Source: Candidatus Zixiibacteriota bacterium
GTDB lineage: Bacteria > Zixibacteria > MSB-5A5 > SM1-73
DNA length: 64,000 nt
NCBI GenBank assembly: GCA_049694315.1
Contig: JBAVQU010000008.1
Coordinates: 17,665 to 81,664, forward strand
Direction: 5' to 3'
A program made the position numbers and the translations under genes. Shown piece by piece: positions 2-22,987 of the stretch. Position 1 is the first letter of the stretch; each line of letters opens with the position of its first letter. A model generated the notes under the pieces. That model saw nothing but the letters and a program-made list of their open reading frames with translations, ran no database searches and was not told the origin of the DNA.

Positions 2-943
2 GATAAGGGCGCCTGGGTGCTGCACATGTTGAGACACATGGTGGGGGATTCCACCTTCTTTCACATTTTCCGAAGCTACTATTCCGATCCGCGCTACGCC
101 AACGGAGTGGCGGAAACAGAGGATTTTCAAGGCATTTGTGAGGCGGTCTCGAGCAAAGACTTGGACTATTTCTTCCAGGAGTGGATTTACGGGACCTACT
201 ATCCACGGTATCAGTACTCCTATACTTTCCAGGCGGCCGGTGGAGGCTATTACGACGTCTTCATTCACTTGGACCAGACTCAAAGCACCAATCCCAACTT
301 CTTCACCATGCCGATCGACCTGCGGGTCGCCACAAGTTCCGGCAATACCACGGTGGTGGCATTCAACGATCCGCGGCACAAGGATTTTGTCGTGCGGGTG
401 CCTTCGGCCCCCACCAGTGTGAGCATAGATCCGGATGGCTGGATCCTAAAGTCTTCGTCTTCCGTCTCCTATGGAATGAACATAGTCACCACAGATTTGC
501 GGTCAGCCGCCCTGTCCTCCGCTTACGCCGAGACTCTTCTGGCCATGGGGGGAGTGCCTCCATACAAATGGAAAGTTCAAATCGACAGCTTGCCCAACGG
601 TCTGGTGCTGGACTCTCTGACCGGGATCATCTCCGGTGTCCCCACCGTTTTGGACAGCTTCGATTTCACCGTGAAGGTGACCGATTCCAGCTCCCCGGCC
701 AAAACTGACAATCAACAGCTTTACATCCTGGTGAACCAAACTTCATTCATCCACGGGGATGCCAATCACGATTCCCTGGTGGATGCGGGGGACGTCGTAT
801 ACCTGGTCGATTACCTCTTTCTGTCCGGCCCTGCACCCATTCCCCGGCAGGCCGGCGATGTGAATTGCGATGGGATTGTGAATACGTCCGACGTTATCTA
901 TCTGATTAACTACCTCTTCAAAGGAGGGCCGCCTCCGTGTTAG
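2..943 (+). CDS. M1-family aminopeptidase, C-terminal fragment (5' end outside the window) with a dockerin-like C-terminal module
   Basis: The frame is open from nt 2. DKGAWVLHMLRHMVGDSTFF...DLDYFFQEWIYG matches the region after the catalytic domain of M1 peptidases. The tail carries two GD(A/V)N-D-x(2)-(V/I)-x(2)-DV-x-YL-x-(N/D)YLF repeats. Confidence 0.75.
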   Translation, partial: DKGAWVLHMLRHMVGDSTFFHIFRSYYSDPRYANGVAETEDFQGICEAVSSKDLDYFFQEWIYGTYYPRYQYSYTFQAAGGGYYDVFIHLDQTQSTNPNFFTMPIDLRVATSSGNTTVVAFNDPRHKDFVVRVPSAPTSVSIDPDGWILKSSSSVSYGMNIVTTDLRSAALSSAYAETLLAMGGVPPYKWKVQIDSLPNGLVLDSLTGIISGVPTVLDSFDFTVKVTDSSSPAKTDNQQLYILVNQTSFIHGDANHDSLVDAGDVVYLVDYLFLSGPAPIPRQAGDVNCDGIVNTSDVIYLINYLFKGGPPPC

Positions 944-3447: not shown

Positions 3448-3571
3448 AATTCCTCCTTTGTGCTTTTGCGACTACTTATCTGTGCAAGTTCCCAGCCACT
3501 TTAGTGGCGTGAACTCCAAAATTCTTATGAATGCATGCACACCTGACTAAAGTCAGTTAGAACTATATAAG

Positions 3572-3715
3572 TTTTTACACTCCATTTTATAGTTTTTTAA
3601 TCCCCCTTTGATTCCCCCTTTATGAAAGGGGGAGAAGTGTTTTTGTGGTTTTCTTGACCTCTCCCCCTGTCCCCCTCTCCTTACTAAGGAGAGGAGGAAC
3701 AAAAGGGGGTGAGGT
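3572..3715. repeat. Composite intergenic repeat: module X (tttttacactccatttt...aatccccctttg...aaaggggga) plus module Y (GC-rich imperfect palindrome)
   Basis: Both modules recur at 4835-4969 in swapped order. Module Y is the palindrome ccccctgtccccctctcc/ggagaggagg...gggggtgaggt. Confidence 0.7.
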
Positions 3716-3915
3716 AAAAAACGCTTTTGTGTGACCACGAAAGGTGACCATACGCCCGACACAACTATCACTCGACAAAACAAGAACAGAACCACGTGCA
3801 TGCGGTGACATATCGTTACCCCAGAGAGTCTCTTAGGCAAGAACTAACAGGAATATGCTACTAAATAAAATAAGTTCGTTGGTATTCGTTTTCATTGATG
3901 GCTCCTATCCGATAA

Positions 3916-4812
3916 TTACGGTAATGGTTTTTCAATTACGTACTCGATGCGTGCACCATAAAAACAAAGATACACCGGGGCGACCTCTATTGTTAAGAAG
4001 TAAAAAAATTTACTGTTGTCAATCATAGCACTAGAAAACGAAGAAACTGTGGCAGAGTCCCAAGAGACCACATGCCGTTCCAATGGAACGATTCCCAATG
4101 TGTCAACTTGTTGGGGGAGATAATAATAGGTTGCACGCGAGACCCTAAAAGTGCCAGGGTTCCCTGGGGGGTTATAATCAGAGTTATAGTAGAGTACAAC
4201 TTTAGTTATAATTGCACCCTGCGGAAGGTGAATGGGCGCAGAAACCCCAATTTTGGGACCTGAGGATCCACTAAAGCAGGAACGCCACTCTTGGTGTTCA
4301 CTAAACTCTGCCATCCCATAAGCAGCGCTCTGGAGCAGGTCAAATGAAAAAGAAGGGATCGAGTAATATCTTGTTGTCGGGTCTATGTGAATACTGTTTA
4401 CGTATATTGTATCACCCATTGCCCCGTCGATGCTGCCCACGTGATAAGCATATGCCACGCTCACCATCGGCTTTCTGGGTGTTATCTCCGGGTCGTCGCC
4501 TACTTTGACCCCTAAATATCTTATTGAGCCATCAAAAACTGAATAGGGAATTGAGTTCACACTTCCTAAAAGAACATTAAACACTCCTTTCTCCACTACC
4601 ACTGCAGACCGCGTCTCAGTCCACAGAGGAGTACTGCCGTTTGAGTCTGCATAAATGGTGAAGACCATCTGGATAGTCGTATCCAGAGGCGCACCGGTTG
4701 TCTTGGTTAGCTTCCCCTGGTAGTTAATCATTTGGGGAACTTCAGCCGAAGCTTGGTTGTATAAGAACCAAGAGAGGACAACGAATACCGAAATCAGGTA
4801 TAGCTTTTTCAT
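3916..4812 (-). CDS. Secreted hypothetical protein
   Basis: 298 aa ORF with a signal peptide ending in ASA. The ATG is preceded by aaaggagtaag. Confidence 0.6.
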   Translation of the reverse strand: MKKLYLISVFVVLSWFLYNQASAEVPQMINYQGKLTKTTGAPLDTTIQMVFTIYADSNGSTPLWTETRSAVVVEKGVFNVLLGSVNSIPYSVFDGSIRYLGVKVGDDPEITPRKPMVSVAYAYHVGSIDGAMGDTIYVNSIHIDPTTRYYSIPSFSFDLLQSAAYGMAEFSEHQEWRSCFSGSSGPKIGVSAPIHLPQGAIITKVVLYYNSDYNPPGNPGTFRVSRATYYYLPQQVDTLGIVPLERHVVSWDSATVSSFSSAMIDNSKFFYFLTIEVAPVYLCFYGARIEYVIEKPLP

Positions 4813-5071: not shown

Positions 5072-7576
5072 TTACGGAGTTGACAAAACCAAGCTTAATT
5101 GAGCTTTCCTTTTCCGGGAGCGGTTGATCAGATAGGCGGCCGTACCGTAGTAAGCGACGTGAATGAATATGAAGGTGGAGGCGTCAGCAATGTTTCTCCA
5201 CCCGACGGTTGCCGCTCCCAGGGTGAAAGCTCGGATTAGGGTGCCGAAAGCACCGACGTAGAGAGTCAAGAGAACCGGCAGCAGGTTGAAGATGAAGAAC
5301 CAAAGCATCACGCTGACCCCAAGGGCAAAGAACGGAGCATAGAAACGTATCACCTTCAGCTCGTGGGGGGAGGCCGTTAATCGGGTGTCTTTGGTTCTTT
5401 CTATCAGGGAATTCATCTTGTTTCTAAACGGGGCAATTCCCATGCCGGATACCCTCTTCAAGGCCGGGAGAATCACCCGCAAGTATATGAAGGTCTTGGT
5501 ATCCTCCATCAAATTTCGGCAATTTAGGCTGTGGGCAATGGCATAGTAAAAATCCGTGCGCATGTAAAACATGCACTGGAAGACTATCATGTAGAAGCTG
5601 GAAAAGATGAAAAGCTTGGCTAACTTGTCAAACCACGGATGGGACAGGAAGCCGTAAAGTGACCCGAGAACTCCCCCATTGGCCCCGGATGCCAGTCTCG
5701 CCAGCCAAGAGTGGCTAGAGCCGAGGTACAATAGGATGACTAATATCGATAGGGTTACGATATCGTTGAAGGCTCCGACCAGATAGACTATGAGCTTCTT
5801 TCTTTTGGGCAAAACCCAGGCATTGGAGACGTCCGTCTCCATTACCAACAGATACAGTCTGGTGCTTAGTCTGAAGGCGCTTTTCACCCCGTATTTTCTG
5901 GCGGCAAAGAAGTGAAACAACTCGTGTTTGGACGCTAAAATCGCTCCGGCGATGACCACGGCAAAGCCTGTCAGGGTGAAAAAGTTAGAGACGATCATGT
6001 AACGATAATGAGGCCGCAAAGCCGGATTTGAAATCATCAAGATCAGGGCGAGGGCCACGATGACCGAAGATATCACTGCCACCGGCCAGGACAGAATCCA
6101 CGAGAAGAGCTTGGGGTTGATTCGGTTGAAGACCGATTCAATCTTCCGGGTGGCCAGCTTTTCTCTGTCCAAGAGCATTCCGTTGACGCTTTTGACGAAT
6201 CCAGAGGAGAGCATGGATCTGATGAAATCTTGGATGTCGTAAGACTGCCTGGTTTCCTCATAGACTTTGTCCGTTACTTTTTTGACGTTCTTCTCTTGCT
6301 CCAACTGTTCTAAGATCCTAACCCCCACCTCCGGGAATTCTCCGTAGGTTCCGGTGTCCTCTTGTCCCACGATCCATCTTCCCTCGACCTTTGTCTTCAA
6401 CAGAGGGTTGAATTCCACCTCTTCTATTTCCGTCCCTTCAAGCTGGTTTACAACATCCGGTCTCTCCTTTTTGTCTTTGAGAGAAAGGTAGAGGCATTCT
6501 ATCAGCTTTCCTTCCCGGGTTCTTTGATGAATTGCCCCACCCTGGCAGAAATCCCAGGCGTCGCAGGCTTGGCAGTGAGCATCGTCTCTCAACCATTCCT
6601 TGTCTGTGAATCTCCTGAATTCGTTTTCCCAAACATCTTTGAATCTTTGTTTCAGAAGATCGCCCTGGATGGAAAGCTCTCGCGAGATTTCCAGGCACCC
6701 GCCCAGTTTTCCGTCATGGGTGATGGTGGCAGACTGAATCCCGGCGGTGCACAAGAAGAGGAAATCTCTTATTCTTCCCTCAAACTCTTCCCCACACCAG
6801 CCTTCGCAGGCCAGACTCACCTTCAGTTTACTCTTCTCCTGTCTGAATCTGTTGTTCAATGAGGAAATCCAAGATAGGAGCTGAAAGGTCTGCTCCTCTG
6901 AGATCTGCAAGTCCGGTCTGGTCTTGGCTCTTCCGATGGGAATGAGATGGCAGATCTTCCAGTCCCTTACGTCCAGTTGTACAAGAAGATCGTGTATTTG
7001 GGGCAGATCGGCAAAATTCAAAGAGGTGACCACAGTAGTGATTTGCAGGTATAGATCGGGATAACGCGTCCTGAGATACTTGATAGCTTTGACTACCTGC
7101 CCGAAGCTCCGTTTTTTCCTTTGCTTATTGTGGGACCCTTTGTTCCCGTCTATGGAAAGGGCCAAAGCTTCGGTCTTGGCTTTTATCAATTCGTCGATGA
7201 ACCCCAGGTTTTTCCCCAGGAAATATCCATTGGTGGATAAGGCGACTCTGAACCCCAAGGAGGACAGGAATCTGATTATCTCCATTAAGTCGGGGCGCAG
7301 GGTAAGCTCGCCGCCGGTGAGGGCAACCGTTAGCTTCTCCGGCTCGAAGTCCTCGGCAATCTCCTTGAAGATTCTTTTGGCTTGATCGGTGGTCAGATCG
7401 GGTCCCTCGTTTTCCTTCCATTCCTCCGGATTGCCGCAGTGCAGGCAATCCATGTCACACTCCTTGGTGATCTCCCAGCCGATCAGACGGAGATTTCGTT
7501 CTTGGATGGCCTCTCTGACTTTCTGAGGATGCTCTTGCAAGTATTTCTGACGGTCAACCAACTCTCGTGGGGACAT
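5072..7576 (-). CDS. Radical SAM/SPASM maturase fused to a PqqD-like RRE and a polytopic HExxH (M50-like) membrane domain
   Basis: CDMDCLHC (Cx3Cx2C) at aa 40-47. Cys-rich SPASM region at about aa 256-361 (CEGWC...C...C...HCQACDAWDFCQGG). PqqD-like segment at about aa 385-465 (...RILEQLEQEKNVKKVTDKVYEETRQSYDIQDFIRSMLSSGFV). This is followed by at least 8 hydrophobic helices, with HELFH at aa 551-555 and GAFND about 45 aa later. Confidence 0.8.
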   Translation of the reverse strand: MSPRELVDRQKYLQEHPQKVREAIQERNLRLIGWEITKECDMDCLHCGNPEEWKENEGPDLTTDQAKRIFKEIAEDFEPEKLTVALTGGELTLRPDLMEIIRFLSSLGFRVALSTNGYFLGKNLGFIDELIKAKTEALALSIDGNKGSHNKQRKKRSFGQVVKAIKYLRTRYPDLYLQITTVVTSLNFADLPQIHDLLVQLDVRDWKICHLIPIGRAKTRPDLQISEEQTFQLLSWISSLNNRFRQEKSKLKVSLACEGWCGEEFEGRIRDFLFLCTAGIQSATITHDGKLGGCLEISRELSIQGDLLKQRFKDVWENEFRRFTDKEWLRDDAHCQACDAWDFCQGGAIHQRTREGKLIECLYLSLKDKKERPDVVNQLEGTEIEEVEFNPLLKTKVEGRWIVGQEDTGTYGEFPEVGVRILEQLEQEKNVKKVTDKVYEETRQSYDIQDFIRSMLSSGFVKSVNGMLLDREKLATRKIESVFNRINPKLFSWILSWPVAVISSVIVALALILMISNPALRPHYRYMIVSNFFTLTGFAVVIAGAILASKHELFHFFAARKYGVKSAFRLSTRLYLLVMETDVSNAWVLPKRKKLIVYLVGAFNDIVTLSILVILLYLGSSHSWLARLASGANGGVLGSLYGFLSHPWFDKLAKLFIFSSFYMIVFQCMFYMRTDFYYAIAHSLNCRNLMEDTKTFIYLRVILPALKRVSGMGIAPFRNKMNSLIERTKDTRLTASPHELKVIRFYAPFFALGVSVMLWFFIFNLLPVLLTLYVGAFGTLIRAFTLGAATVGWRNIADASTFIFIHVAYYGTAAYLINRSRKRKAQLSLVLSTP

Positions 7577-7790
7577 GTCGTCGTCGCCTTCTCATTATTG
7601 GTGACTTGCTCCTTCCGTCCGATGTCGCGTTCGTCAACACAAACTCGTTTCCGGGTTGTGTTAGATACCAAGCTCATTCATCCAAGACCCTCGCCAGAGC
7701 CATGCTCCACCGCAAATGGAGTGCGGACACTGCCTGATAAGGGCAATGTCCACACACCGCAAAACCTCCCCACCTTTTTGTCATCCGCTG

Positions 7791-7874
7791 CTATCCCGGA
7801 GGCATGACCATGGGCTGCATTGTGGGAGGTCCGGTGGTGTCGATCCTCTCCAGCCAGTTGATGGTGATTTTCAT
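7791..7874 (-). CDS. Putative RiPP precursor peptide 1 (27 aa: MKITINWLERIDTTGPPTMQPMVMPPG)
   Basis: Too short for the ORF track. ATG at 7874 is preceded by aaggagg. It is a paralogue of 8017-8106, and the differences between them are mostly synonymous in this frame. Confidence 0.65.
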   Translation of the reverse strand: MKITINWLERIDTTGPPTMQPMVMPPG

Positions 7875-8016
7875 CTCTCTCTGCCTCCTTGCTCAAGGGA
7901 TTTAAGCTAGTGCCCCCCTGAACGGGACAAAACTGTAAGGTTTAACGCGAGAGCTTTCAAAGCGTGGACATCACCCCAGAGGGGCGATGTCCACAGGCTG
8001 TAACCGCCACCTTCTG

Positions 8017-8106
8017 CTAGACGCCACCGCCGACAACTATCATCGGCTGCATCACCGGTGGGTCAGTGGTGTTGATTCTCTCCAGCCAGTTGATGGTGAT
8101 CTTCAT
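8017..8106 (-). CDS. Putative RiPP precursor peptide 2 (29 aa: MKITINWLERINTTDPPVMQPMIVVGGGV)
   Basis: Too short for the ORF track. ATG at 8106 is preceded by ggaaggaggtga. The first 22 codons are conserved with peptide 1, and the C-terminus diverges. Confidence 0.65.
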   Translation of the reverse strand: MKITINWLERINTTDPPVMQPMIVVGGGV

Positions 8107-8419
8107 CCGTAATCACCTCCTTCCTTCGAAAGGATTGAAGAGCTTGCCTCGAAGAGACAAGACCCGGAAAGTCTATTCTTTGAAACACGACAAAGAAGCC
8201 GTAAGCCTTCCACCGATACCACCTAACACGTTAAGATCAAAGACCTTATTAGCTGATCGAATTGGGGAGGATGCGCTCTTCTTGCCCATCGGAGTCTGGA
8301 CAAAATTGGTTATGTCTCTCTACAGGTGTTTATCATAATCTACCACTCGCTCCCCTGATGTCAAGTGAAAAATTCGGGGCGCCAAAGATTTTTTGGTGGT
8401 TACCGGAGGCACGTCCGGC

Positions 8420-9452: not shown

Positions 9453-10715
9453 TCACGGGAAAATCCCGCGTCGGTGGTATATTTTCTCCAGTCGCTCCAG
9501 CGCGGCAGCGTAAGCCGCCTTGCGCCAGTCGATCTTCTTCTCCGCGGCTTTCGTGTTTATCAAATTGAATGCATCCACTATCCTGCTGCGCAGTTTGGAA
9601 TCCACCTCATCTAAATCCCAGAATTCGCTGCGTTTGTTCTGAAGCCACTCGAAATAGCTCACGATCAATCCGCCGGAGTTACACAAAAGATCCGGGAGGA
9701 TGTCGATGCCTCTCTGCCGCAGAATCCGGTCACCGTCCGGATCGGTAGGGCCATTGGCTCCCTCCGCCACCAGCTTGACCTTGAGAAGCGGAGCCGTATT
9801 GCCCGTGATCTGATTCTCCAGCGCCGCCGGAATGAAAATGTCGGCCTGCGTCTGAAGAAAGGTAACATGATCCATCGGTTTAGCCTGGGGATACCCCTTG
9901 ATTCCGCCATTCTTTCTGACGTAAGCGGTCAAATCGTCCGGGTCTATCCCCTGAGGATCAAGGATGGCGCCGGTGAAATCCTCAGCCGCCACCAGTTTCG
10001 CTCCATGCGGTTTCAAAAGCCGGGCGGCCCAGGATCCGACCTTTCCGAATCCTTGAACCAGGTAAGTGGCCCCGGACAGGTCGAAACCTTTGAGCTTCGC
10101 CCACTCCTCCACTAAGAAAACCATCCCCTGACCGGTGGCTTTGTCACGACCCAGGCTCCCTCCCGATTTGACCGGCTTGCCGGTCACCACGTGTTTACAC
10201 GCCTGCCGTTTGTGCGGAGGAACGGTGGACAGATAAGTATCCAATATCCAAGCCATGATCTGAGCACCGGTGCTCAAGTCCGGGGAAAGGATGTCATACT
10301 CTGGTCCTATGTTGTTCCCTAAAGCGAAGGTGAACCTCCGGGTAATTCGCTCCAGCTCGTTGAATGTGAATTCAGACGGGTTGAACCTGATTCCGCCGTT
10401 GGCACCTCCCATGGGGATATTGGCGATGGCCGCCTTCCAGGTCGTGCAAGTGGCTAAGGCACGCACTTCTTCCAGCTCCAGTGCAGGATGATAGCGTAAT
10501 CCGCCCTGAAACGGCCCCATCACATTGTTGTGCTGCACCCTGAAGCCGGTAAACATCTCCACCCGACCATCGTCCATCTTCACCGGGAAATTGACCACAA
10601 TCTCGTTGGCAGTTTTAGCCAGCATTCCGCGGACGTCGGGATCTAACCCAATCATTTTGGCCGCGTCATCCACATGCTCGATCACGGTATCGCAGAAACT
10701 CTTTTGTTTTGCCAT
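9453..10715 (-). CDS. gdh: Glu/Leu/Phe/Val-family dehydrogenase (glutamate dehydrogenase, about 420-aa type), paralogue 1
   Basis: WKAAIANIPMGGANGGI, the GTGAQIMAW-type region, VQGFGKVGSW (Rossmann) and EGANGPT are all present. Confidence 0.85.
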   Translation of the reverse strand: MAKQKSFCDTVIEHVDDAAKMIGLDPDVRGMLAKTANEIVVNFPVKMDDGRVEMFTGFRVQHNNVMGPFQGGLRYHPALELEEVRALATCTTWKAAIANIPMGGANGGIRFNPSEFTFNELERITRRFTFALGNNIGPEYDILSPDLSTGAQIMAWILDTYLSTVPPHKRQACKHVVTGKPVKSGGSLGRDKATGQGMVFLVEEWAKLKGFDLSGATYLVQGFGKVGSWAARLLKPHGAKLVAAEDFTGAILDPQGIDPDDLTAYVRKNGGIKGYPQAKPMDHVTFLQTQADIFIPAALENQITGNTAPLLKVKLVAEGANGPTDPDGDRILRQRGIDILPDLLCNSGGLIVSYFEWLQNKRSEFWDLDEVDSKLRSRIVDAFNLINTKAAEKKIDWRKAAYAAALERLEKIYHRRGIFP

Positions 10716-10747: not shown

Positions 10748-12028
10748 TCATGGGAAAATCCCACGTTCTCGGTAAACCGTCTCTAAGCGAGACAGGGCTA
10801 CGATGTAAGCTGCGGTACGCCAATCGGTCCGATACTCCTTGGCGGTATCTCGCACGTGCTCATAGGCACTCACGATCTTCCGGTATAGTTTGCTGTCCAC
10901 CTCGGCTAAATCCCAGAATTCGCTGCGCTTGTTTTGCAGCCACTCGAAATAGCTGACCACCACTCCGCCGGCGTTGCACAGGATGTCGGGAATCAAATCG
11001 ATTCCTTTTTGCTGGAGTACCCTGTCACCATCGGGATCCGTGGGGCCGTTAGCTCCCTCCGCCACCAACTTGACGTTTAGGAGCGGGGCGGTTTCTCCGG
11101 TGATTTGGTTCTCCAAGGCGGCGGGAACGAAGATGTCGGCCGGGGTACGAAGCAGGGTCTTCCGATCGATCGGCTTGGAGCTTGGATAGCCGACGATAAG
11201 GCCCTTGTTCTTCTTGGCGTAAACCACCAGGTCTTCCGGATCGATCCCGTCGGAGCTGGCGATGGCTCCGCTGGCATCCTCTGCGGCGATCAGCTTCGCC
11301 CCGTGTGGTTTTAGAAGCAGAGCAGTCCAGGAACCAACGTTTCCGAATCCCTGCACCGTGTAGGTGGCGCCTTTTAGGTTAAAACCTTTGTCCTTGGCCC
11401 AGTGTTCGATAGTGTAGACCACCCCTTGACCGGTAGCCTTGTCGCGCCCCAAGCTTCCGCCCGACTCAATCGGCTTGCCGGTTACCACATGGATGCAGGC
11501 CTGTCTCTCGTGCGGCGGCATGGTGGAAAGAAAAGTATCCAAAATCCAAGCCATGATCTGGGAGTTGGTATTAACGTCCGGTGCGGGGATGTCGTACTCC
11601 GGTCCGATATTGTTCCCCAAAGCGAAGGTGAACCGACGGGTTATTCGCTCCAACTCGCTGGCCGAATACTTGAAAGGATCGCATTGAATCCCTCCCTTGG
11701 CCCCTCCAAACGGTATGTTGGTCAATGCTCCTTTCCAGGTCATCCAGGTAGCCAATGCCCGGACTTCGTCAATGTCTACCGCAGGGTGAAAACGAAGCCC
11801 ACCTTTGTAGGGACCTAAGGCATTGTTATGCTGGACCCGATAGCCGGTCAACATCTCAATACGACCATCGTCCATCTTGACCGGAAAGTTGACGACGATC
11901 TCGTTGTTGGTCTTGCCCAAGATCTTGCGCATGTCCAGGTCCAGCTTCATCAAGTCTGCTGCCTTGTTGAATTGCCAGACCACGTTGTCATACACGCTGG
12001 TTCTTCTTCCCCCGGATGCGTCTGTCAT
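10748..12028 (-). CDS. gdh: Glutamate dehydrogenase, paralogue 2, in tandem with 9453-10715
   Basis: Colinear and highly similar to the neighbouring gene (FPVKMDDGR.EM.TG.RVQHNN..GP.KGGLR.HP; VQGFGNVGSW; EGANGPTDPDGD). SD aaaggagg. Only 32 nt separate the two genes. Confidence 0.85.
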   Translation of the reverse strand: MTDASGGRRTSVYDNVVWQFNKAADLMKLDLDMRKILGKTNNEIVVNFPVKMDDGRIEMLTGYRVQHNNALGPYKGGLRFHPAVDIDEVRALATWMTWKGALTNIPFGGAKGGIQCDPFKYSASELERITRRFTFALGNNIGPEYDIPAPDVNTNSQIMAWILDTFLSTMPPHERQACIHVVTGKPIESGGSLGRDKATGQGVVYTIEHWAKDKGFNLKGATYTVQGFGNVGSWTALLLKPHGAKLIAAEDASGAIASSDGIDPEDLVVYAKKNKGLIVGYPSSKPIDRKTLLRTPADIFVPAALENQITGETAPLLNVKLVAEGANGPTDPDGDRVLQQKGIDLIPDILCNAGGVVVSYFEWLQNKRSEFWDLAEVDSKLYRKIVSAYEHVRDTAKEYRTDWRTAAYIVALSRLETVYRERGIFP

Positions 12029-12790: not shown

Positions 12791-14161
12791 TTAACTCGTG
12801 GAATTTTCGGAGGGAGTCGGTTTCTGTAATTTCTCGCGCAGGGTCTTTCGATCGATGCCCAAGATCTGTGCCGCCTTGGTCTTGTTTCCTTTCACGCTCG
12901 ATAGAACGTTGCGGATGTACTCCACCTCGACTTCTGCCAAAGTCCGGTTCAGTCCGATTTCTCTTTGCGCCGTGAACCGCATTAAGGACGGAAGGTCCGG
13001 AACGTCGATCGATTCCCCATCGGTCATCACTACCAGACGCTGGATGACGTTTTCCAGCTCACGGACATTGCCGGGCCAATCATAATGCTTCAGCGCCTCC
13101 AGCGCATTCTCGGAGAAACGGGGGCTGGGTTTGCCGAACTCCTCGGCGTATTTGGTGGCAAAGTGGTTGGTCAAAAGCACTATGTCCTCCCACCTTTCTC
13201 GCAGGGGAGGAATGGCAATATTGATTACGTTGAGCCGGAAATACAAATCCTCCCGGAAGAGCTGTTTGTTGACCAGGCTGAGCAGATCTTTGTTGGTGGC
13301 GGCCAGAATCCTGACGTCGACCTTGCGGGGACGAGTTGTGCCTACCATGTAGACCTCTGTGTCCTGAAGTACCCGGAGCAGCTTTACCTGCATGGACAGG
13401 GAGGTTTCGCTGATCTCATCCAAGAAGATCGTGCCGCCGTCGGCGGTTTGAAAAAAGCCGGCTCGGGATTCGATGGCTCCGGTGAACGACCCTTTGACAT
13501 GGCCAAACAGCTCACTTTCCAGGAGCCCCTCCGGTATTCCGCCGCAGTTCACCGGCACGAAGGGAGCGGAGGCACGCGGACTGCCGTAGTGAATGGCTCG
13601 CGCCACCAGCTCCTTGCCGGTTCCGCTCTCTCCGGTGATGAGCACGGTGGCGGAGGTGGAGGCTGCCTTAGTGATCGCTTCGAAAACCTTGAGCATCGCT
13701 TCCGATTCTCCGATCAAACCACCCGGCGCCTTGGTGGCTCGAGGAGTGAGATTTCGTCCCGCTCGCCGTGCCTGCAGCTTGTCCAAGACCTTTCGCACGG
13801 CGAAGAATAGCTCCTGGTCAGTAAAAGGCTTGGGCAGGTACTCCTCCGCCCCGATCTTGATGGCCTTGACCGCCCCTTCGATGGTGGCGTAGCCGGTGAT
13901 CATGATCACTTCGGTATCCTTTAGGTTTTCCCGAATGTGTCGCACCATGTCCAGCCCGCTCACTTTGGGCATCTTCAGATCGGTGATGACCAGATCCACC
14001 GTGGTCCCTTCGAGAATCTTGATCGCCTCCGCCACGTCCGAGGCGGTGAAGACCTGGTACCCCTGGGAGGTTAAGTTTCTTTGAAGCACCTCCAGGGTGT
14101 TGGGAGCGTCGTCAACCACCAGAATTCGCTCTGTATCGACTGCGGCCGACATGCTATTCAC
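12791..14161 (-). CDS. Sigma-54-dependent response regulator (NtrC family)
   Basis: Receiver domain (DLVITDLKMP), AAA+ domain (GESGTGKE, GSFTGA, ESELFGH) and a C-terminal Fis-type HTH (GNKTKAAQILGIDRKTLREKL). Confidence 0.9.
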   Translation of the reverse strand: MNSMSAAVDTERILVVDDAPNTLEVLQRNLTSQGYQVFTASDVAEAIKILEGTTVDLVITDLKMPKVSGLDMVRHIRENLKDTEVIMITGYATIEGAVKAIKIGAEEYLPKPFTDQELFFAVRKVLDKLQARRAGRNLTPRATKAPGGLIGESEAMLKVFEAITKAASTSATVLITGESGTGKELVARAIHYGSPRASAPFVPVNCGGIPEGLLESELFGHVKGSFTGAIESRAGFFQTADGGTIFLDEISETSLSMQVKLLRVLQDTEVYMVGTTRPRKVDVRILAATNKDLLSLVNKQLFREDLYFRLNVINIAIPPLRERWEDIVLLTNHFATKYAEEFGKPSPRFSENALEALKHYDWPGNVRELENVIQRLVVMTDGESIDVPDLPSLMRFTAQREIGLNRTLAEVEVEYIRNVLSSVKGNKTKAAQILGIDRKTLREKLQKPTPSENSTS

Positions 14162-15875
14162 TCTCCTCTTCCTCTGATAGCCTGCTCACGGGAAGCCGTA
14201 TCTCAAACCGGGTGCCGACACCTTCTTTGCTTTTGACCTCGATTTGGCCTCGATGGGAGCTGACGATCCCATGCACCACGGAAAGACCTAATCCGGTCCC
14301 CTCTCCTACTTCCTTGGTAGTAAAGAACGGTACGAATATCTGTTCTTGCACTTCTTGGGCCATTCCCAGTCCGGTATCCTCCACCACTAACGCCACGTAG
14401 TCACCTGCGGCCAGGGTTTGAATGGTAAGCCTGCCGCCCTTGGGCATGGCCTGAATGGAATTGACCACCAGATTAACCAGGACCTGTTGCACTTGAGCTG
14501 CATCCGCTATCATCCCGGGCAGGTTCGGGGAGAGAAGACGCACCAGCTCAATCCCTTCCTTGGCACAACGGGACTCAAAGAAGTACAGTCCCTCTTCTAC
14601 TATCTGGTTCAAATTCACCTCAGTCTTCTTGGTCGGCATCTGGCGGGCGAAGATCAAAAGCTTTTTCACCACCTCCCGCGCATGTAGGGAGGCATTCACG
14701 ATCTTCTCAATGTCCTGCAGCGCCTGCGTGGGGAGCTGTGGGCATTTGGTGGCCAGCTGAGCGAAGCCTAAGATGTTGCCCAGAGGCTCGTTTAGCTCGT
14801 GAGCCACTCCGGCGGCAAGCTGCCCGATGGTGGCTAGGCGGTCGGCATGCATGAGCTGGTTCTGGAGCTGTGCTTTCTCCTCCTCCGCCTGCCTGCGCTC
14901 GATCTTCAACGCCACTTCTCTGGCCACTGCATCGATTAGGCTTCTCTCCTCCTTAAGATACGGGCCTTCATCCAGCTCCGGCTTTTCTTCGAGGTAGACC
15001 ACCTCCACCACCCCTCTTCTCTTGCTACTCACCACAATGTCCGCAATCTGTATGTGTCTCCCCTCCCGGAAATCAGGCATCGAGTAGGAGTGCCCGTCCA
15101 AGACGATTCTGGCGGTGGCGATCTCAGGGTACAGCCAGGCAGGGGGAAGAAGCTCAACGATGCCCTCCAGCATTTTGTCTAAGGACAGGTCCGGGCGTGC
15201 CACCAGTCTGGCAATCCCGTAAAGGCAGGTCAACTCTTTGACCCGCTCGCGCAAAGCCACCTGAGCACTGCGGTGAACAAAAGCCACCCCCAGGGTTTGC
15301 GCCAAACCTTCATAGAAATCTATCTCTTCTTTGGAGAAGAAATCGGTGCGCTTGCTTCTCAGATGCAGAAGCCCAATATTGTCCTGGTCCACCACCAAAG
15401 GAAAAACCGCTAGGGATTTCCACTGGCTTGACTGGGATAGGTCGTAGGGAAGGAGGGGATTTTCCAAATCATTCGTCCAGAAACTCCCCTTTTTTGTGAA
15501 ATGGGATAGTGCCGGATCAAACTTCCTCAGCAGAACTTCCCGGCAGAGCCTCTCCAGGCCATCGACCTCCGAGGAACAAGGGATCATCCGATGGTCTTCA
15601 GTATGCAGGCAGGGGAGATACTCCAAATGAAATGAGGTCTCAGCATTTTTGATCATCTCGCAGCGATAGTATTTTTGGCGTCTTTTCAACCGGAGCTCCA
15701 CCCCATCGCATCCGGAGAACTCGATCAGCTTTCTCAATACCTCTCGCACAAAATCAATCCGAGGAAGGCCTCGATTGGAATAGAGGAGTATTTCGTGAGA
15801 GAGCGCCAAAAAGGCTTCAGCCATGTTTTGGCCGGAGGAATTCGCTTCGCCTTGTTTTGGATTACGGTTCATCAT
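14154..15875 (-). CDS. Sensor histidine kinase with GAF-like N-terminal regions
   Basis: H-box AAGVAHELNEPL. N/G boxes (LVNLVVNSIQAM, DTGLGM, GTGLGLS). Overlaps the regulator gene by 8 nt. Confidence 0.85.
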   Translation of the reverse strand: MMNRNPKQGEANSSGQNMAEAFLALSHEILLYSNRGLPRIDFVREVLRKLIEFSGCDGVELRLKRRQKYYRCEMIKNAETSFHLEYLPCLHTEDHRMIPCSSEVDGLERLCREVLLRKFDPALSHFTKKGSFWTNDLENPLLPYDLSQSSQWKSLAVFPLVVDQDNIGLLHLRSKRTDFFSKEEIDFYEGLAQTLGVAFVHRSAQVALRERVKELTCLYGIARLVARPDLSLDKMLEGIVELLPPAWLYPEIATARIVLDGHSYSMPDFREGRHIQIADIVVSSKRRGVVEVVYLEEKPELDEGPYLKEERSLIDAVAREVALKIERRQAEEEKAQLQNQLMHADRLATIGQLAAGVAHELNEPLGNILGFAQLATKCPQLPTQALQDIEKIVNASLHAREVVKKLLIFARQMPTKKTEVNLNQIVEEGLYFFESRCAKEGIELVRLLSPNLPGMIADAAQVQQVLVNLVVNSIQAMPKGGRLTIQTLAAGDYVALVVEDTGLGMAQEVQEQIFVPFFTTKEVGEGTGLGLSVVHGIVSSHRGQIEVKSKEGVGTRFEIRLPVSRLSEEEESE

Positions 15876-21125: not shown

Positions 21126-22814
21126 TCATTTCAAAAGGACCATCTTGTTAGCTAGAATCTGGTCTCCTACTTTCAATTGATAAAAGTAGACTCCACTGAC
21201 TGATCGCTCTCCCTTATCATTCTTCCCATCCCATTGGACAGAATAACTTCCTGGATGTTTGTTCTCATTTACCAAGGTCCTGACCACCTCCCCCAAGACA
21301 TTATAGATTCTAAGGGTGGTCGGGACGGGGCTGCGGGCCGTGGATTGCGGACGGTGGACGGTGTAGTGGATGGTGGTGGAGGGGTTGAACGGATTGGGGT
21401 AGTTCTGGGAAAGAGTGAATTCCGAGGGGCTTCCAGAGCTTTCGGCCTCATCCTTCACCGCGCTTGGTTTTTTGACATACTTTATAGTAGTATAGTCCGT
21501 GTAAGTCAAAGCATTGTAGCTAGTTCCGGTTACGTAAACATTGCCCGAATCATCTACAGCTATGGCAGAAGCCGCATCCGAATTGTTAGCTGGGCTGTTG
21601 TATCTTATAATCCAAGCAGTGTCTCCGTTAGGATGATACTTTATAGTGGCAAAATCATTGTCCGTCCCGATGCCACCGTAACTTCCTCCAGTCACATAGA
21701 TATTGTCAGAATCGTCTACGGCTATGGCACGAGCCACATCATCGCTGTTTCCCGGTCCCTCGTATAATCTCGCCCAGAGACTGTCCCCCTCGGAATTATA
21801 CTTTATCGTGGCATAGTCGGTGTTGTCATCACCGGTGTAACTGCTTCCGGTTACGTAGATATTATCCGAATGATCTAAGACCATAGCATAAGCGTTATCA
21901 GTGGAGTTATACAGTCCATTGTATCTTCTCACCCAGGCAGTGTCCCCATTCGGATAGTATTTTATGACGGCATAGTCGTCTTCGGTTACATCGCCATAAC
22001 TATATCCACACACATAGACATCTTTAGAACCATCGATGGCTATAGCATTGGGATAATCATCGCTATTCCCTGGTCCGTTGTATCTTCTTACCCAGACGGT
22101 ATCTCCCCCAGGGGTATATTTGATGGTGGTATAGTCGTAGCGTGTCCCACTGCCCTCGCTATATCCGGTCACATACACATAGCCGGAATCATCCACGGCC
22201 AGGGCAGAAGCATTATCATAAGAGTTTCCCGGTCCATTGTATCTTCTAACCCAGACTGTGTCGCCATTGGGATAATACTTTATGGTTGCATAGTCCCAAT
22301 CTGTCTCGCTGACTTTGCTACTTCCGGTCACATAGACATAGCTGGAATCATCCACCGCTATGGCAATAGCATCATCATCTGAGTTTGCCGGTCCGTTGTA
22401 TCTTTGAACCCAAGCAACATCTCCATTGGGAAAATACCTGATTGTAGCATAATCATAAGAAGTTCCAAGGCCGTAACTCGCTCCGGTCACGTAGACATTG
22501 TCAGAACCATCTACCGATAGACCATAGGCCGCATCATCGATGTTCCCCGGTCCATTATATCTTCTCACCCAGGCGGTATCCCCGTTGGAGTAATACTTGA
22601 TGGTGGCATAGTCATAATCTGTGCCGCTGCCTTTGCCATATCCGGTCACATAAACATTACCTGAGCCATCTACTTCGATGGCTGAAGCATGGTCTTCGTT
22701 ATTTCCCGGTCCATTGTACATTCTCACCCAGGCGGTGTCAACCGACTCGGCAAATGATGGAGATGCACACAACAACAGCACTATCCCCAAAACCATCTTT
22801 AGAGCTTTTAGCAT
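21126..22814 (-). CDS. SBBP (beta-propeller) repeat protein with a T9SS-type C-terminal sorting domain
   Basis: At least 8 repeats of DTAWVRRYNGPGN..D.A.AIAVDDSGNVYVTG.S.G.GT..DY.TIKY. C-terminal NYPNPFNPSTTI...GVYFYQL.......KMVLLK. ATG at 22814 with SD aaggagg, followed by a signal peptide. Confidence 0.8.
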   Translation of the reverse strand: MLKALKMVLGIVLLLCASPSFAESVDTAWVRMYNGPGNNEDHASAIEVDGSGNVYVTGYGKGSGTDYDYATIKYYSNGDTAWVRRYNGPGNIDDAAYGLSVDGSDNVYVTGASYGLGTSYDYATIRYFPNGDVAWVQRYNGPANSDDDAIAIAVDDSSYVYVTGSSKVSETDWDYATIKYYPNGDTVWVRRYNGPGNSYDNASALAVDDSGYVYVTGYSEGSGTRYDYTTIKYTPGGDTVWVRRYNGPGNSDDYPNAIAIDGSKDVYVCGYSYGDVTEDDYAVIKYYPNGDTAWVRRYNGLYNSTDNAYAMVLDHSDNIYVTGSSYTGDDNTDYATIKYNSEGDSLWARLYEGPGNSDDVARAIAVDDSDNIYVTGGSYGGIGTDNDFATIKYHPNGDTAWIIRYNSPANNSDAASAIAVDDSGNVYVTGTSYNALTYTDYTTIKYVKKPSAVKDEAESSGSPSEFTLSQNYPNPFNPSTTIHYTVHRPQSTARSPVPTTLRIYNVLGEVVRTLVNENKHPGSYSVQWDGKNDKGERSVSGVYFYQLKVGDQILANKMVLLK

Positions 22815-22850
22815 GATATACCTCCTTGTTTTTGACCTGTTTGCTTTTGT

Positions 22851-22987
22851 CACCCTCTCCCTACCCCCTCCCATTGAGGGAGGGGGAAAGAAAAACCTTC
22901 CCCCTTGATGGAGGAGGAAACATCTTTAACCCCAGCCCCTCGTTCCCGCTCTCCGTAAAATGGACAGGGGGACCAAGGGTGAGAGGT
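22851..22987. repeat. GC-rich imperfect palindromic intergenic element
   Basis: caccctctccctaccccctccc-attga-gggaggggg ... cccgctctcc...gggggaccaagggtgagaggt. Same family as 3658-3715, 4835-4892, 28111-28163, 29490-29600 and 32727-32850. Confidence 0.6.

Follow-up and report, generated by a model that had tools for sequence, protein, structure and literature searches.

According to two accounts of the epipeptide system (PMC10885120; PMC7026026), it comprises a small precursor, a radical SAM (rSAM) enzyme that carries auxiliary Fe-S cluster(s), and an intramembrane protease of the M50 type with an HExxH motif, which is thought to cleave and export the product. The removal of leaders by M50 proteases in RiPP pathways is exemplified by EpeP, TglG and TmoG (PMC10885120). 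In the systems of PqqE/PqqD, SuiB, SkfB and CteB, an RRE binds the leader and an rSAM/SPASM enzyme modifies a short peptide, and the locus described here appears to share this logic. It also shares the set of a precursor, an rSAM enzyme and an M50-type protease with the epipeptide system of B. subtilis (YydF/EpeX, YydG/EpeE and YydH/EpeP). We consider it quite probable that two short ORFs of this locus encode the precursors of a previously undescribed RiPP family, and that the neighboring fusion enzyme is a single all-in-one, membrane-anchored maturase.

The window, that is, the whole stretch of 64,000 nucleotides that was analyzed, contains two minus-strand ORFs that had been pointed out in a preliminary description, and both the coordinates (Table 1) and the translations given there matched exactly. 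Copy A encodes MKITINWLERINTTDPPVMQPMIVVGGGV and copy B encodes MKITINWLERIDTTGPPTMQPMVMPPG. Residues 1–14 were assigned to the leader in both types, leaving residues 15–29 of type A and 15–27 of type B as the core. Shine-Dalgarno sites of the GGAGG type had been claimed for both ORFs, and AAGGAGG was found before each ATG with a spacer of 9 nt. A codon-by-codon recount reproduced the 9 differences among the first 22 codons, six of them synonymous (K2, R10, T14, P16, P17 and P21) and three changing the residue (D/N12, G/D15 and T/V18). The statement that the copies diverge completely past codon 22 was slightly too strong: V and I stand at codon 23, and Gly and Pro are abundant in both tails. 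The gene for the 834-aa protein, correctly described as an adjacent radical SAM gene, begins 214 nt beyond the stop codon of copy B. The duplicated unit spans ~230 nt and consists of an upstream element, the Shine-Dalgarno site, the ORF and a downstream hairpin. The peptide ORFs were uncalled as genes in most assemblies examined.

Table 1. Positions of the features discussed in the text; amino acid numbers refer to the 834-aa protein unless stated otherwise.
Feature	Position in the window	Strand	Basis and details
Precursor peptide gene type A	8017..8106 (8106->8017)	minus	ORF and translation, 29 aa, ATG...TAG
Precursor peptide gene type B	7791..7874 (7874->7791)	minus	ORF and translation, 27 aa, ATG...TAG
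Shine-Dalgarno site of copy A, AAGGAGG	8116..8122	minus	9 nt 5' of ATG, read from sequence
Shine-Dalgarno site of copy B, AAGGAGG	7884..7890	minus	9 nt 5' of ATG, read from sequence
Hairpin 3' of copy A	7963..7995	minus	13-bp stem TGTGGACATCGCC / GGTGATGTCCACG and 2 inner pairs
Hairpin 3' of copy B	7722..7754	minus	13-bp stem TGTGGACATTGCC / GGCAGTGTCCGCA
Sigma-70-like promoter match TTGAAA-17-TACAGT	7932..7960	minus	between copies A and B; consensus match only
Three-domain fusion, 834 aa	7576->5072	minus	radical SAM/SPASM protein by Pfam
Radical SAM/SPASM domain, aa 1-365	6482..7576	minus	Pfam, alignment of 15 fusions, Foldseek
PqqD-like RRE, aa ~385-465	6182..6424	minus	beta-sheet and three helices; profile and fold matches
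M50/site-2-protease-like polytopic membrane domain, aa ~480-834	5072..6139	minus	borderline Pfam, weak fold match
HELFH motif, aa 551-555	5912-5926	minus	
CBM9 and DUF5916 protein, 752 aa	1189..3447	minus	Pfam; signal peptide; C-terminal ...DYWFSF

The pattern of substitutions had been read as a sign that selection acts on the peptide and not on a motif of RNA or DNA, and this reading was upheld. Over codons 2–17 of 13 distinct copies from related loci, a pN/pS of 0.16 was obtained, and the variable columns numbered 5, 2 and 12 at codon positions 1, 2 and 3, respectively. R10 was encoded in three ways among the copies (AGA, AGG and CGA), the remaining two frames of the same strand were interrupted by stops, and the related loci carried the same ORFs in frame. 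The amino acid motif survived where the enzymes were only 37–41% identical, and it persisted in archaeal loci that are AT-rich and in GC-rich loci, despite their very different DNA composition. It was concluded that the peptide ORFs are real coding genes under purifying selection on the protein.

The co-occurrence of such ORFs with homologues of the 834-aa gene had been proposed as a test. Among the loci that have a homologous enzyme of 830–857 aa and whose upstream DNA extends for 250 nt or more, all 11 carried one to three such ORFs directly upstream and in the same orientation. These loci represent three clades with an enzyme identity of 37–81%, Thermoplasmata archaea included. Seven of them are bacterial and have two to three copies each (the window, L001, L002, L007, L008, L011 and L012), their enzymes being 73–100% identical; the context evidence within this clade comes mostly from close relatives, and the system is rare. 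In the four distant loci, with enzymes about 37–41% identical to that of the window, the upstream ORFs were MMKDIGIRWLEKIDTTASGIMVTAAVYMLPS and MKEIRFRWLEKIDTTASSPPIMAVLIAPVPP in L017, MKEIEIRWLEKIDTTSPAPVMISAVFPPPL in L018 (Thermoplasmata), ..ETIDVKWLEKLEMTSLHTNTVMTHFPAAW in L019 and ..VEFRWLEKLEMTADLNTVMVHWEPCLGLC in L021. A peptide identical to type A of the window was found in L002–L006, and type A orthologues were found in L001, L007, L008/9, L011, L012 and L016; type B orthologues, which end in (V/I)(M/A)PPG, were present in every bacterial locus. Since both paralogue types are conserved at every bacterial locus, two products or one two-component product are likely. When genome contigs were scanned with the enzyme alignment, the only matches were two unrelated rSAM proteins of 27–29% identity, at L013 (Phycisphaeraceae) and L014 (an archaeon), and no WLE-type ORF was found at either locus. 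The scan of metagenome contigs with the peptide alignment gave two loci, one of which was already among the set. P0011, P0012 and P0015, considered as fusions of reversed order, turned out to be double-rSAM proteins; no M50 domain or nearby WLE peptide was found at L020 (the P0011 locus), the one examined of the three.

Further, the signals around the ORFs were compared. The sequence AAGGAGGTGA was kept ahead of all bacterial copies except copy B of the window, which has AAGGAGGCAG. The hairpins gave a consensus structure of -22.1 kcal/mol with compensatory changes at 3 pairs (13 copies), and the stem was conserved in sequence as well as in structure. They were rejected as canonical intrinsic terminators, as none was called by terminator prediction and the U-tract was absent; no U-tract was seen behind the stem of copy A. 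The promoter match located between the two copies suggests that copy B may have a promoter of its own, and TTGAAG-17-TAATAA elements were recognized by eye ahead of other copies. A sigma-54 promoter was rejected by inspection for the conserved upstream element because of its wrong spacing. At gathering thresholds, no Rfam matches were obtained over the whole window.

If the locus held no gene but a duplicated non-coding repeat or a small RNA with fortuitous open frames, then a stem kept in sequence as well as in structure and ORFs uncalled in most assemblies would fit. This explanation is left with a negligible probability by the low pN/pS and the concentration of variation at third codon positions, the perfect Shine-Dalgarno site at a fixed distance ahead of nearly every bacterial copy, the retention of the motif in loci of such different composition, and the empty Rfam search; on the codon-level evidence, it already counts as effectively refuted. 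It is also extremely unlikely that the ORFs serve in cis as regulatory leader peptides or arrest peptides, where ribosome stalling (e.g., at Pro-Pro) and the hairpins would attenuate the rSAM gene at the level of transcription or translation. Such a role would agree with short ORFs directly upstream of an enzyme gene, with a conserved hairpin after each of them and with the Pro-Pro kept in the bacterial clade, and arrest peptides can show conservation at the amino acid level. However, there are two to three tandem copies, each with its own Shine-Dalgarno site and promoter-like element, the hairpins have no U-tract and none was called a terminator, and Pro-Pro is missing in L019, L021 and one peptide of L017. 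Moreover, the RRE and the protease of the enzyme both need a peptide substrate, and in the Streptomyces locus L022, treated below, the homologous ORFs sit downstream of the protease gene, which is incompatible with an upstream attenuator.

For the precursor reading, the division of the peptides is central. The N-terminal leader of the rSAM-coupled peptides follows the consensus h-x-h-x-W-L-E-(K/R)-h-(D/E)-T-T, and its Trp is invariant in all 12 peptides. The core consists of 13–17 residues, is hydrophobic with a high share of Met, Pro, Gly, Val and Ile, and contains a Met that is always 7–10 residues past the D/E of the TT motif. The C-termini are variable, no conserved Tyr was found among the rSAM-coupled peptides, and Cys occurs in one of the 12 distinct ones. 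Both copies of the window are free of Cys, as had been noted, and the argument drawn from this against sactipeptides and ranthipeptides was borne out: 11 of the 12 peptides have no Cys, and the StsB and PapB models scored far under their cut-offs. The preliminary description was also right about the layout of a conserved leader and a variable core, but placed the boundary too late: it lies earlier than codon 22, as sharing across the clades, and with the ThiF-type relatives described below, is limited to residues ~3–14. The xPPx(M)QPM stretch, the conservation of which is confined to the bacterial clade, including its Pro-Pro, was assigned to the core. The leader had not been recognized from any described RiPP class; consistently, the peptides had no matches in Pfam or NCBIfam, and no match was found in the literature searched.

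Three points had escaped the preliminary description: the fused architecture of the enzyme, the two conserved paralogue types and the sharing of the leader with ThiF-type clusters. The 834-aa protein, which has homologues in uncultured archaea and bacteria, joins three domains, namely an rSAM/SPASM domain, a PqqD-like RRE and a membrane protease that is M50-like. The rSAM domain matched PF04055 with E=2.6e-20, and SPASM was detected by PF13186 at 27.5 bits (cut-off 21.5). In the alignment of 15 fusions, the CX3CX2C motif at C40/C44/C47 was invariant, and so were six further Cys residues (276, 294, 335, 338, 344 and 361), seven or eight being usual for SPASM; the SPASM region was poorly modeled (pLDDT <50 at residues 320–361). 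The best Foldseek matches of the rSAM model were PqqE (E=3.8e-9), then SkfB and SuiB. The RRE matched PF05402 with E=0.014–0.00045, where 4 of 16 domain sequences gave a match (best 4.5e-4), and its profile found TbiB1 (E=0.001) and a PqqD-family protein (E=0.002) among PDB sequences. By Foldseek, the RRE model was closest to TbiB1 with its leader (probability 1.00, TM 0.69), followed by the RREs of McbB, ThcOx and CteB. The profile search, the predicted fold and the Foldseek matches support a PqqD-like RRE, the evidence being good by fold and weak by sequence alone.

In the C-terminal domain, H551, E552 and H555 of the HELFH motif were invariant in 19 sequences and fall within a predicted helix of residues 533–561. 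The model, with a C-terminal pLDDT of 83.6, places HExxH in a transmembrane helix with a beta-hairpin after it. Other invariant residues of this domain are ETD 580–582, D605, RTD 673–675, D692 and D798. The domain of the window scored 23.1–26.5 bits against PF02163, under the cut-off of 27.2, and its homologue P0089 scored 30.6 bits; relatives of the domain matched weakly the daptide and YydH/LiaK HExxH protease models and carry the IMG label "putative peptide zinc metalloprotease protein". RseP was the sole protease among the fold matches to membrane proteins, and the match was weak (probability 0.63, E about 1). The second site-2 protease motif, N-x-x-P-x-x-x-x-D-G, is without its Asp: the window has FNLLPVLLTLYVG, in which only P767 is invariant. 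One of the invariant Asp 582, 605, 675, 692 or 798 could be the zinc ligand instead. Since the domain departs from canonical peptidase M50 in the second motif and in the Pfam threshold, it is best termed M50-like.

In all bacterial loci with contigs that continue beyond the fusion, a gene for a CBM9/DUF5916 protein was found downstream of it, and this holds also for the P0008 contig, which was available as gene calls without DNA; the other flanks differed. The product is a probable outer-membrane beta-barrel, and a functional link to the fusion is presumed. No conserved transporter or immunity gene was found near the fusion loci, and no ThiF-like gene was detected near the window or any fusion locus, as judged by Pfam labels and by Pfam/NCBIfam scans of the immediate neighbors.

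A related arrangement was found in actinomycetes, where stand-alone RRE and M50 homologues of ~410–430 aa (E down to 3e-27) follow ThiF-family adenylyltransferases. These loci come from records of a plasmid collection and belong to Streptomyces, Nocardia, Actinacidiphila and Nonomuraea, the last being a record of 11.85 Mb. Four of them (L022, L023, L025 and L028) have small ORFs with the same leader, namely MEKIEIRPLDRLETTAQSCPRCA, MEKIEIRMLDKLETTAVCHEDVPCS, ..RIGFRRLERVETTNSPCANAS, ..LEVKIRKLEKIETTINRGGASG and ..VVISIRRLDKKETTGLPCSGNGAS; no small ORF with the leader was found in L026. Tandem precursor copies occur in L022 and L024. The leader of the ThiF-coupled peptides reads h-x-h-R-x-L-(E/D)-(K/R)-h-E-T-T, with R, P, M or K at the position of Trp, and the cores have 8–10 residues and contain Cys. 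When all stop-to-stop segments of ten loci (3,769 in number) were searched with an HMM built from the rSAM-coupled leaders alone, ranks 1–4 went to ORFs from this set of five ThiF-type ones (E 0.011–0.031), the next match having an E of 4.2. The assignment of the leader is thereby supported independently. The module of the leader and the RRE-protease recurs with a different modifying enzyme; hence, the leader and the protease travel together, and the modifying enzyme is swapped. In the accounts of TLAT RiPPs that were consulted, neither this protease nor this leader is described.

These relatives bear on which part of the peptide is modified. The conserved N-terminal segment might itself be the target, for instance of an rSAM cross-link from Trp to the Lys/Arg three residues on, or to Glu, and the C-terminal tail might be a follower or membrane-targeting segment removed by the M50 domain. 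The Trp, present in every rSAM-coupled peptide and replaced in the ThiF-coupled leaders, tracks the rSAM enzyme and not the protease, which speaks for this possibility. Additionally, enzymes of the rSAM/SPASM type that link Trp to Lys are known, of which SuiB was among the top fold matches and the NCBIfam WgkB model among the weaker matches. We nevertheless regard such a modification as unlikely. The rest of the motif (L-E/D-K/R-h-E/D-T-T) is common to clusters without any rSAM, as would be expected if the shared RRE-protease recognizes it, and we know of no RRE-dependent system in which the RRE-bound segment is the modified one. The C-terminal part also keeps its Met and its length of 13–17 residues across the clades, which speaks against a mere spacer.

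Another explanation is that the protease domain alone acts on the peptides, which would give unmodified, pheromone-like products, and that the rSAM domain has some other target. In Gram-positive bacteria, intramembrane M50 proteases of the Eep type mature unmodified small hydrophobic pheromones, and in the cores described here neither a Cys nor an aromatic residue is conserved that could indicate a known rSAM cross-link. This explanation was judged very improbable for the locus. The rSAM/SPASM, RRE and protease domains are joined in one polypeptide across three clades diverged to 37–41% identity, which speaks for a single pathway; among solved structures, those of the peptide-modifying enzymes PqqE, SkfB and SuiB come nearest to the rSAM domain; and in the ThiF-type relatives the place of rSAM is taken by a class of RiPP-modifying enzymes.

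For the precursors of a RiPP, we propose that the central PqqD-like RRE would bind the leader, and the N-terminal rSAM/SPASM domain would abstract a hydrogen atom from the core and modify it. The HExxH M50-like domain would then cut the leader off shortly after TT, and the product, short and hydrophobic, would be released by it into the membrane or across it. Further handling of this product in the bacterial clade may fall to the CBM9/DUF5916 protein of the outer membrane. We infer leader binding, core modification, the cleavage site and export. Each peptide gene appears to form its own small, strongly translated unit with a promoter-like element, a perfect Shine-Dalgarno site and a stabilizing or terminating hairpin.

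The first candidate for the chemistry, by analogy with the rSAM and M50 epipeptide system, would be an L-to-D epimerization of aliphatic core residues. A new C-H functionalization or cross-link around the conserved Met is the second candidate, and a cross-link involving the invariant Trp is the third. The reaction may be new, since the residues on which all well-known rSAM peptide cross-links rely are absent from the cores. As for its role, the product is a candidate for a secreted signal that is small and hydrophobic, or for a peptide active on membranes. It is possible, and proposed here tentatively, that the locus represents a new RiPP class with an undescribed rSAM chemistry on a Cys-free, Met/Pro-rich core (e.g., at or next to the conserved Met) and the first described maturase in which a modifying enzyme is combined with an RRE and with an intramembrane protease for the leader, and that it belongs to a wider unrecognized platform of leader and RRE-protease, into which unrelated enzymes (rSAM or ThiF) are plugged and which has moved between Bacteria and Thermoplasmata.

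The locus provides a full set of RiPP candidates, namely a precursor, a leader motif, a core and a single-gene maturase. As the maturase is encoded by a single gene, its co-expression with one peptide should reveal the chemistry. The recurrence of one leader and an RRE-bearing membrane protease with either rSAM or ThiF enzymes illustrates a modular evolution of RiPPs, and it offers a handle for genome mining, in which the leader or the RRE-M50 protein is searched for instead of the modifying enzyme. To our knowledge, few archaeal RiPP systems are known, and the Thermoplasmata members would add to them. No description of this architecture or leader was found in the literature on TIGR04133, rSAM with M50, SPASM with site-2 protease, RRE with M50, or ThiF with metalloprotease, and both the precursor family and the maturase architecture were judged to be previously undescribed.

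Compared with the epipeptide system, the cores described here are likewise aliphatic and Cys-free, as are the epimerized sites of YydF. The homologue P0089 matched the YydH/LiaK model NF058609 with E=1.6e-5 (24.7 bits, cut-off 225) and the protease domain of the window gave no match to it, which is consistent with a distant relation to YydH/EpeP rather than family membership. When the rSAM domain was compared by fold, EpeE ranked 20th, behind PqqE, SkfB, BlsE, SuiB and MoaA, and no epimerase family was among the best 25 NCBIfam matches. The domain was thus rejected as a member of the YydG/EpeE family, since its best family was TIGR04133 and in fold it resembled EpeE no more closely than it did PqqE, SkfB or SuiB. 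In contrast to the epipeptide system, the enzyme and the protease form one polypeptide with the RRE between them, the precursor has half the length of YydF and an unrelated sequence, no ABC transporter of the YydIJ/EpeAB type was found in the conserved neighborhood of any locus, and the host organisms are archaea and a bacterium that appears to be diderm.

TIGR04133, the best-scoring named family, gave 247.6 bits (cut-off 425), and its members were 29–32% identical over about 90% of the rSAM domain (tblastn). In Bacteroidales and Treponema, the partner of this family is a "radical SAM-associated putative lipoprotein" of 130–280 aa, unlike the WLE peptides, and the family has neither RRE nor protease. 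The window system was therefore not assigned to TIGR04133 rSAM with a TIGR04134-type lipoprotein: the score is under the cut-off, and the lipoprotein partners are unrelated to the peptides. PqqE, SuiB, SkfB and CteB were the top structural matches to the enzyme, yet their family models were not reached; the peptides are without the Glu/Tyr, Lys/Trp or Cys that those enzymes use, and the RRE is located C-terminal to SPASM and followed by the membrane protease. PQQ and mycofactocin, which are marked by a Glu-x3-Tyr motif in PqqA and a C-terminal Val-Tyr in MftA, were rejected because of the variable C-termini without a conserved Tyr and scores of 62.5 bits for PqqE (cut-off 381) and 90.8 bits for MftC (cut-off 265).

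Among TLAT RiPPs, microcin C, pantocin A and enterofaecin have been described, to which the uncharacterized actinomycete clusters found here are added. The latter share with the window the leader motif, a homologous RRE and M50-like protease, and tandem precursors, but their modifying enzyme is a separate ThiF-family adenylyltransferase, their leader is without Trp and their cores contain Cys. The window system was not classed as a TLAT RiPP, as no ThiF-family adenylyltransferase was seen there and its overlap with these clusters is limited to the leader and the protease. Finally, the protease domain shares HExxH in a transmembrane helix and a borderline Pfam M50 match with the site-2 protease/RseP/Eep family. 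It differs in having no PDZ domain and no conserved Asp motif (LDG), in carrying the RRE in place of the usual substrate-gating domains, and in its presumed substrate, which is a soluble peptide of 26–35 aa and not a transmembrane protein.

The two small open reading frames (ORFs) lay on the minus strand where the preliminary description had placed them, and its codon tally proved exact: 9 of the first 22 codons differed between copies A and B, six synonymously and three nonsynonymously, and neither peptide contained Cys. An AAGGAGG sequence was located nine bases 5' of the ATG in both copies, and the duplicated unit of ~230 nt comprised an upstream element, the Shine-Dalgarno (SD) sequence, the ORF and a downstream hairpin. 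Among 13 distinct copies, pN/pS over codons 2-17 was 0.16, the variable columns were distributed as 5, 2 and 12 over codon positions 1, 2 and 3, and Arg10 was encoded by AGA, AGG or CGA. Stops interrupted the two other frames of that strand. Copies A and B are genes.

A perfect SD sequence preceded nearly every bacterial copy at a constant distance, and each copy was followed by a 13-bp hairpin, GTGTGGACATTGC...GCAATGTCCACAC, with three compensatorily changed pairs and no U-tract. A sigma-70-like match was found between copies A and B, and, judged from these signals, each copy looked like a small expression unit of its own. Since the hairpin core GTGGACAT/ATGTCCAC was nearly invariant in sequence, besides structure, among the bacterial copies, a sequence-specific role beyond transcript stabilisation was suggested, for instance as a palindrome bound by a protein or as a target of an RNase.

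Features of the window, of its 834-aa protein and of compared loci (L numbers; P numbers are database homologues of the 834-aa protein)
Feature	Source	Position	Product or detail
Copy A	window, minus strand	8106->8017	MKITINWLERINTTDPPVMQPMIVVGGGV
Copy B	window, minus strand	7874->7791	MKITINWLERIDTTGPPTMQPMVMPPG
Hairpins	window; also after every copy in L001-L016	7722-7754 and 7963-7995	
rSAM/SPASM enzyme	834-aa protein	residues 1-365	PF04055 E=2.6e-20; PF13186 above cut-off
RRE	834-aa protein	residues ~385-465	beta-sheet and three helices (model)
Polytopic membrane domain	834-aa protein	residues ~480-834	HExxH; H551, E552, H555 invariant
CBM9+DUF5916 protein	window; homologues in L002, L007, L008, L009, L011	1189-3447	~745 aa
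Extra ORF	window	3916-4812	fibre-like N-terminus
Extra ORF	window	3553-3840	
Glutamate-dehydrogenase-like gene	window	9453-10715	420 aa
Glutamate-dehydrogenase-like gene	window	10748-12028	426 aa
Sigma-54-dependent response regulator	window	12791-15875	
Sigma-54-dependent response regulator	L007	11593-12948	
Sigma-54-dependent response regulator	L008/L009	13400-14505	
Dockerin-like ORF	window	17-943	two repeats at its end
Repeat-bearing ORF	window	21126-22874	582 aa
159-bp tandem repeat	window	21914-22736	5.2 copies, 67% matches
Upstream peptides	L017 (enzyme P0009)		MMKDIGIRWLEKIDTTASGIMVTAAVYMLPS; MKEIRFRWLEKIDTTASSPPIMAVLIAPVPP
Upstream peptide	L018 (enzyme P0158)		MKEIEIRWLEKIDTTSPAPVMISAVFPPPL
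Upstream peptide, TTG start	L019 (enzyme P0162)		ETIDVKWLEKLEMTSLHTNTVMTHFPAAW
Upstream peptide	L021 (enzyme P0010)		..VEFRWLEKLEMTADLNTVMVHWEPCLGLC
Tandem-rSAM protein	L020	8001-10565	
Leader-bearing ORFs, tandem, downstream of protease gene	L022	8118-8486	MEKIEIRPLDRLETTAQSCPRCA + MEKIEIRMLDKLETTAVCHEDVPCS
Leader-bearing ORF	L023	5602-5724	..VVISIRRLDKKETTGLPCSGNGAS
Leader-bearing ORF	L025	3480-3596	..RIGFRRLERVETTNSPCANAS
Leader-bearing ORF	L028	3622-3798	..LEVKIRKLEKIETTINRGGASG
Three identical tandem 24-aa ORFs	L024	4036-4321	MKSMKKIVVRKLATVTVPQLRPGT

The neighbouring 834-aa protein is a three-domain fusion of a radical SAM (rSAM)/SPASM enzyme, a RiPP recognition element (RRE) and an M50-like membrane domain. 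C40, C44, C47 and six more cysteines were invariant in 15 homologues. The best named family of the rSAM domain was TIGR04133 (247.6 bits, below the cut-off of 425), and its model was best matched by PqqE, SkfB, BlsE and SuiB. When a profile of residues ~385-465 was compared with PDB sequences, two entries headed the list: TbiB1, a lasso-peptide leader-binding protein, at E=0.001, and a protein of the PqqD family at E=0.002. Foldseek matched this region to leader-bound TbiB1 with a probability of 1.00 and a TM of 0.69, followed by the RREs of McbB, ThcOx, CteB and TfuB1, and these matches identify the region as an RRE. The alignments behind the structure models were shallow (15-19 sequences).

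In the membrane domain the HExxH motif was situated within a long helix, after which came a beta-hairpin; more Asp and His residues were invariant. The window protein scored slightly below the Pfam M50 threshold and one homologue above it; relatives weakly matched the NCBIfam daptide and YydH/LiaK RiPP-protease models, and RseP, itself a weak match, was the sole protease among the fold matches. Strict M50 membership was unsupported because the canonical LDG Asp motif was not conserved, hence the domain is termed M50-like.

Database searches recovered seven relatives of the 834-aa protein with 72-81% identity, all metagenomic, and metagenome and genome scans showed this bacterial clade to be rare. 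The same in-frame ORFs were present in every bacterial locus with upstream DNA, always an A-type copy (C-terminus of hydrophobic residues and GGGx) followed by a B-type copy (C-terminus (V/I)(M/A)PPG); L011 carried a third copy. The sole neighbour linked to the fusion throughout the clade was the CBM9+DUF5916 gene, and all other flanks differed. Its product has a signal peptide, and its C-terminus is of the outer-membrane type; it is a probable outer-membrane protein and may be involved in passage or reception of the peptide product.

Two extra ORFs separated this gene from the fusion in the window. Four independent assemblies (that of L002 and three JGI samples, L003-L005) shared an endpoint ~400 nt upstream of copy A, which suggests a repeat or strain-variable junction. 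Sigma-54-dependent response regulators, in the window paired with a histidine kinase, were encoded within ~6 kb of several bacterial loci; as their position varied, chance in a genome rich in regulators may account for this. The glutamate-dehydrogenase-like genes upstream of the window locus were tandem and clearly paralogous, and the 159-bp repeat coded for a 53-residue module that recurs in the protein.

When 1.84 billion cluster representatives were searched exhaustively with a profile, P0009 and P0010 were the only full-length fusions added. The same search returned numerous rSAM proteins that stand alone, as well as numerous stand-alone proteins of ~410 aa matching the RRE+protease half alone. 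A word-indexed search added five fusions (P0158, P0159 and P0160-P0162), of which P0158 and P0159 were labelled by NCBI as Thermoplasmata archaeon MAGs. The co-occurrence of peptide and maturase, proposed earlier as a check, extended to all four distant loci examined, where small ORFs with the same motif lay directly upstream of fusions 37-41% identical to the window enzyme. The DNA of these loci ranged from AT-rich archaeal to GC-rich, therefore conservation acts at the peptide level. All 12 distinct peptides kept W-L-E and one Thr unchanged, and T-T was followed in these peptides by a hydrophobic tail of 13-17 residues, always with a Met 7-10 residues past D/E.

P0009, P0158 and P0159 carried an extra zinc-ribbon-like tail, CPxC...CPHC (encoded within the final ~45 codons of the fusion gene in L017 and L018), which bacterial fusions lacked. 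A conserved 262-aa HTH (Crp-like) protein was encoded divergently upstream in archaeal L017 and L018. The closest rSAM-domain relatives among 50%-identity cluster representatives (P0011, P0012, P0015, P0165 and P0166; 341-361 bits) were 736-873-aa proteins with two rSAM/SPASM domains in tandem. Neither a WLE-type peptide nor an M50 gene was found near such a protein in L020, where a Gly/Ala/Ile-rich 192-aa ORF lay upstream on the opposite strand.

Stand-alone homologues of the RRE+protease half were found by tblastn of a plasmid collection (E to 3e-27, coverage up to 98%) in Streptomyces, Nocardia, Actinacidiphila, Nonomuraea, Priestia and Macrococcus. A ThiF-family adenylyltransferase was encoded shortly upstream in every annotated locus opened: the two genes were adjacent or overlapping in four annotated actinomycete loci and separated by one or two others in Priestia and Macrococcus. 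At the unannotated Nonomuraea locus, a ThiF-family gene directly upstream was recognised by its nucleotide-binding motif. Small ORFs with the same leader were present at four actinomycete loci, and none was found at the fifth one examined, L026. An HMM built from rSAM-coupled leaders alone was run blind against all 3,769 stop-to-stop segments from ten loci (130 kb); its top four matches (E 0.011-0.031) were four of these ThiF-locus ORFs, the next having E = 4.2. It follows from the shared leader and this search that the N-terminal motif would act as a leader to which a common RRE-protease module binds, with the core starting after T-T, and that the module is used with two unrelated modifying enzymes. 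One observation points the opposite way: the leader Trp was invariant with rSAM partners but missing from the ThiF-coupled leaders. Contact of this Trp with the rSAM domain, or even its modification there, is therefore possible and is kept as the foremost alternative.

ThiF-family enzymes activate peptide C-termini in described RiPP pathways. Most of the short ThiF-locus cores (AQSCPRCA, AVCHEDVPCS, GLPCSGNGAS and NSPCANAS) had a Cys 1-6 residues from the C-terminus, and the L028 core, INRGGASG, had none. A route to thiolactone, autoinducer-like peptides is possible for the actinomycete clusters, a family which seems undescribed in the literature examined on ThiF-like adenylyltransferases (TLAT). 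On a Priestia koreensis plasmid (NZ_CP061869.1, L024), the 24-aa ORFs, of only loose leader similarity, directly preceded genes for ThiF, a substrate-binding-protein-like product, the RRE-M50 homologue and an MFS transporter, in that order.

In the best-supported scenario, each peptide would be produced in excess from a small unit of its own, its leader would be captured by the RRE on the cytoplasmic side of the membrane-anchored fusion, and its core would be modified by the rSAM/SPASM domain. The M50-like domain would then cut off the leader and release a hydrophobic product of ~13-17 residues or shorter at the membrane. Because an rSAM epimerase acts together with an M50 protease in the epipeptide system (PMC10885120), epimerisation of aliphatic residues would be the simplest guess for the reaction. 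Family-model and fold comparisons did not place the fusion enzyme among EpeE relatives, and the conserved Met hints at a different chemistry.

The interpretation of the preliminary description, RiPP precursors beside an rSAM maturase, was supported and extended. The peptides, the fusion architecture and the RRE-M50 protein were absent from Pfam, NCBIfam (June 2026 release) and the searchable literature. Membership in the epipeptide, TIGR04133, PQQ, mycofactocin, sacti-/ranthipeptide and TLAT groups each failed on at least one tested defining feature; the lipoproteins of 130-280 aa that genuinely partner TIGR04133 enzymes bear no relation to the window peptides. Only tentatively, with the balance somewhat against it, do we suppose that the enzymology is new as well and that a 'leader + RRE-protease' platform of general reach lies behind it. 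The window system is probably a radical-SAM RiPP system whose precursor family had gone unrecognised, whose maturase, a single polypeptide, has no precedent, and whose evolutionary link to ThiF-type clusters was unexpected. Its workings would resemble those of RRE-dependent rSAM RiPP pathways, combined with a membrane protease in the style of the epipeptides.
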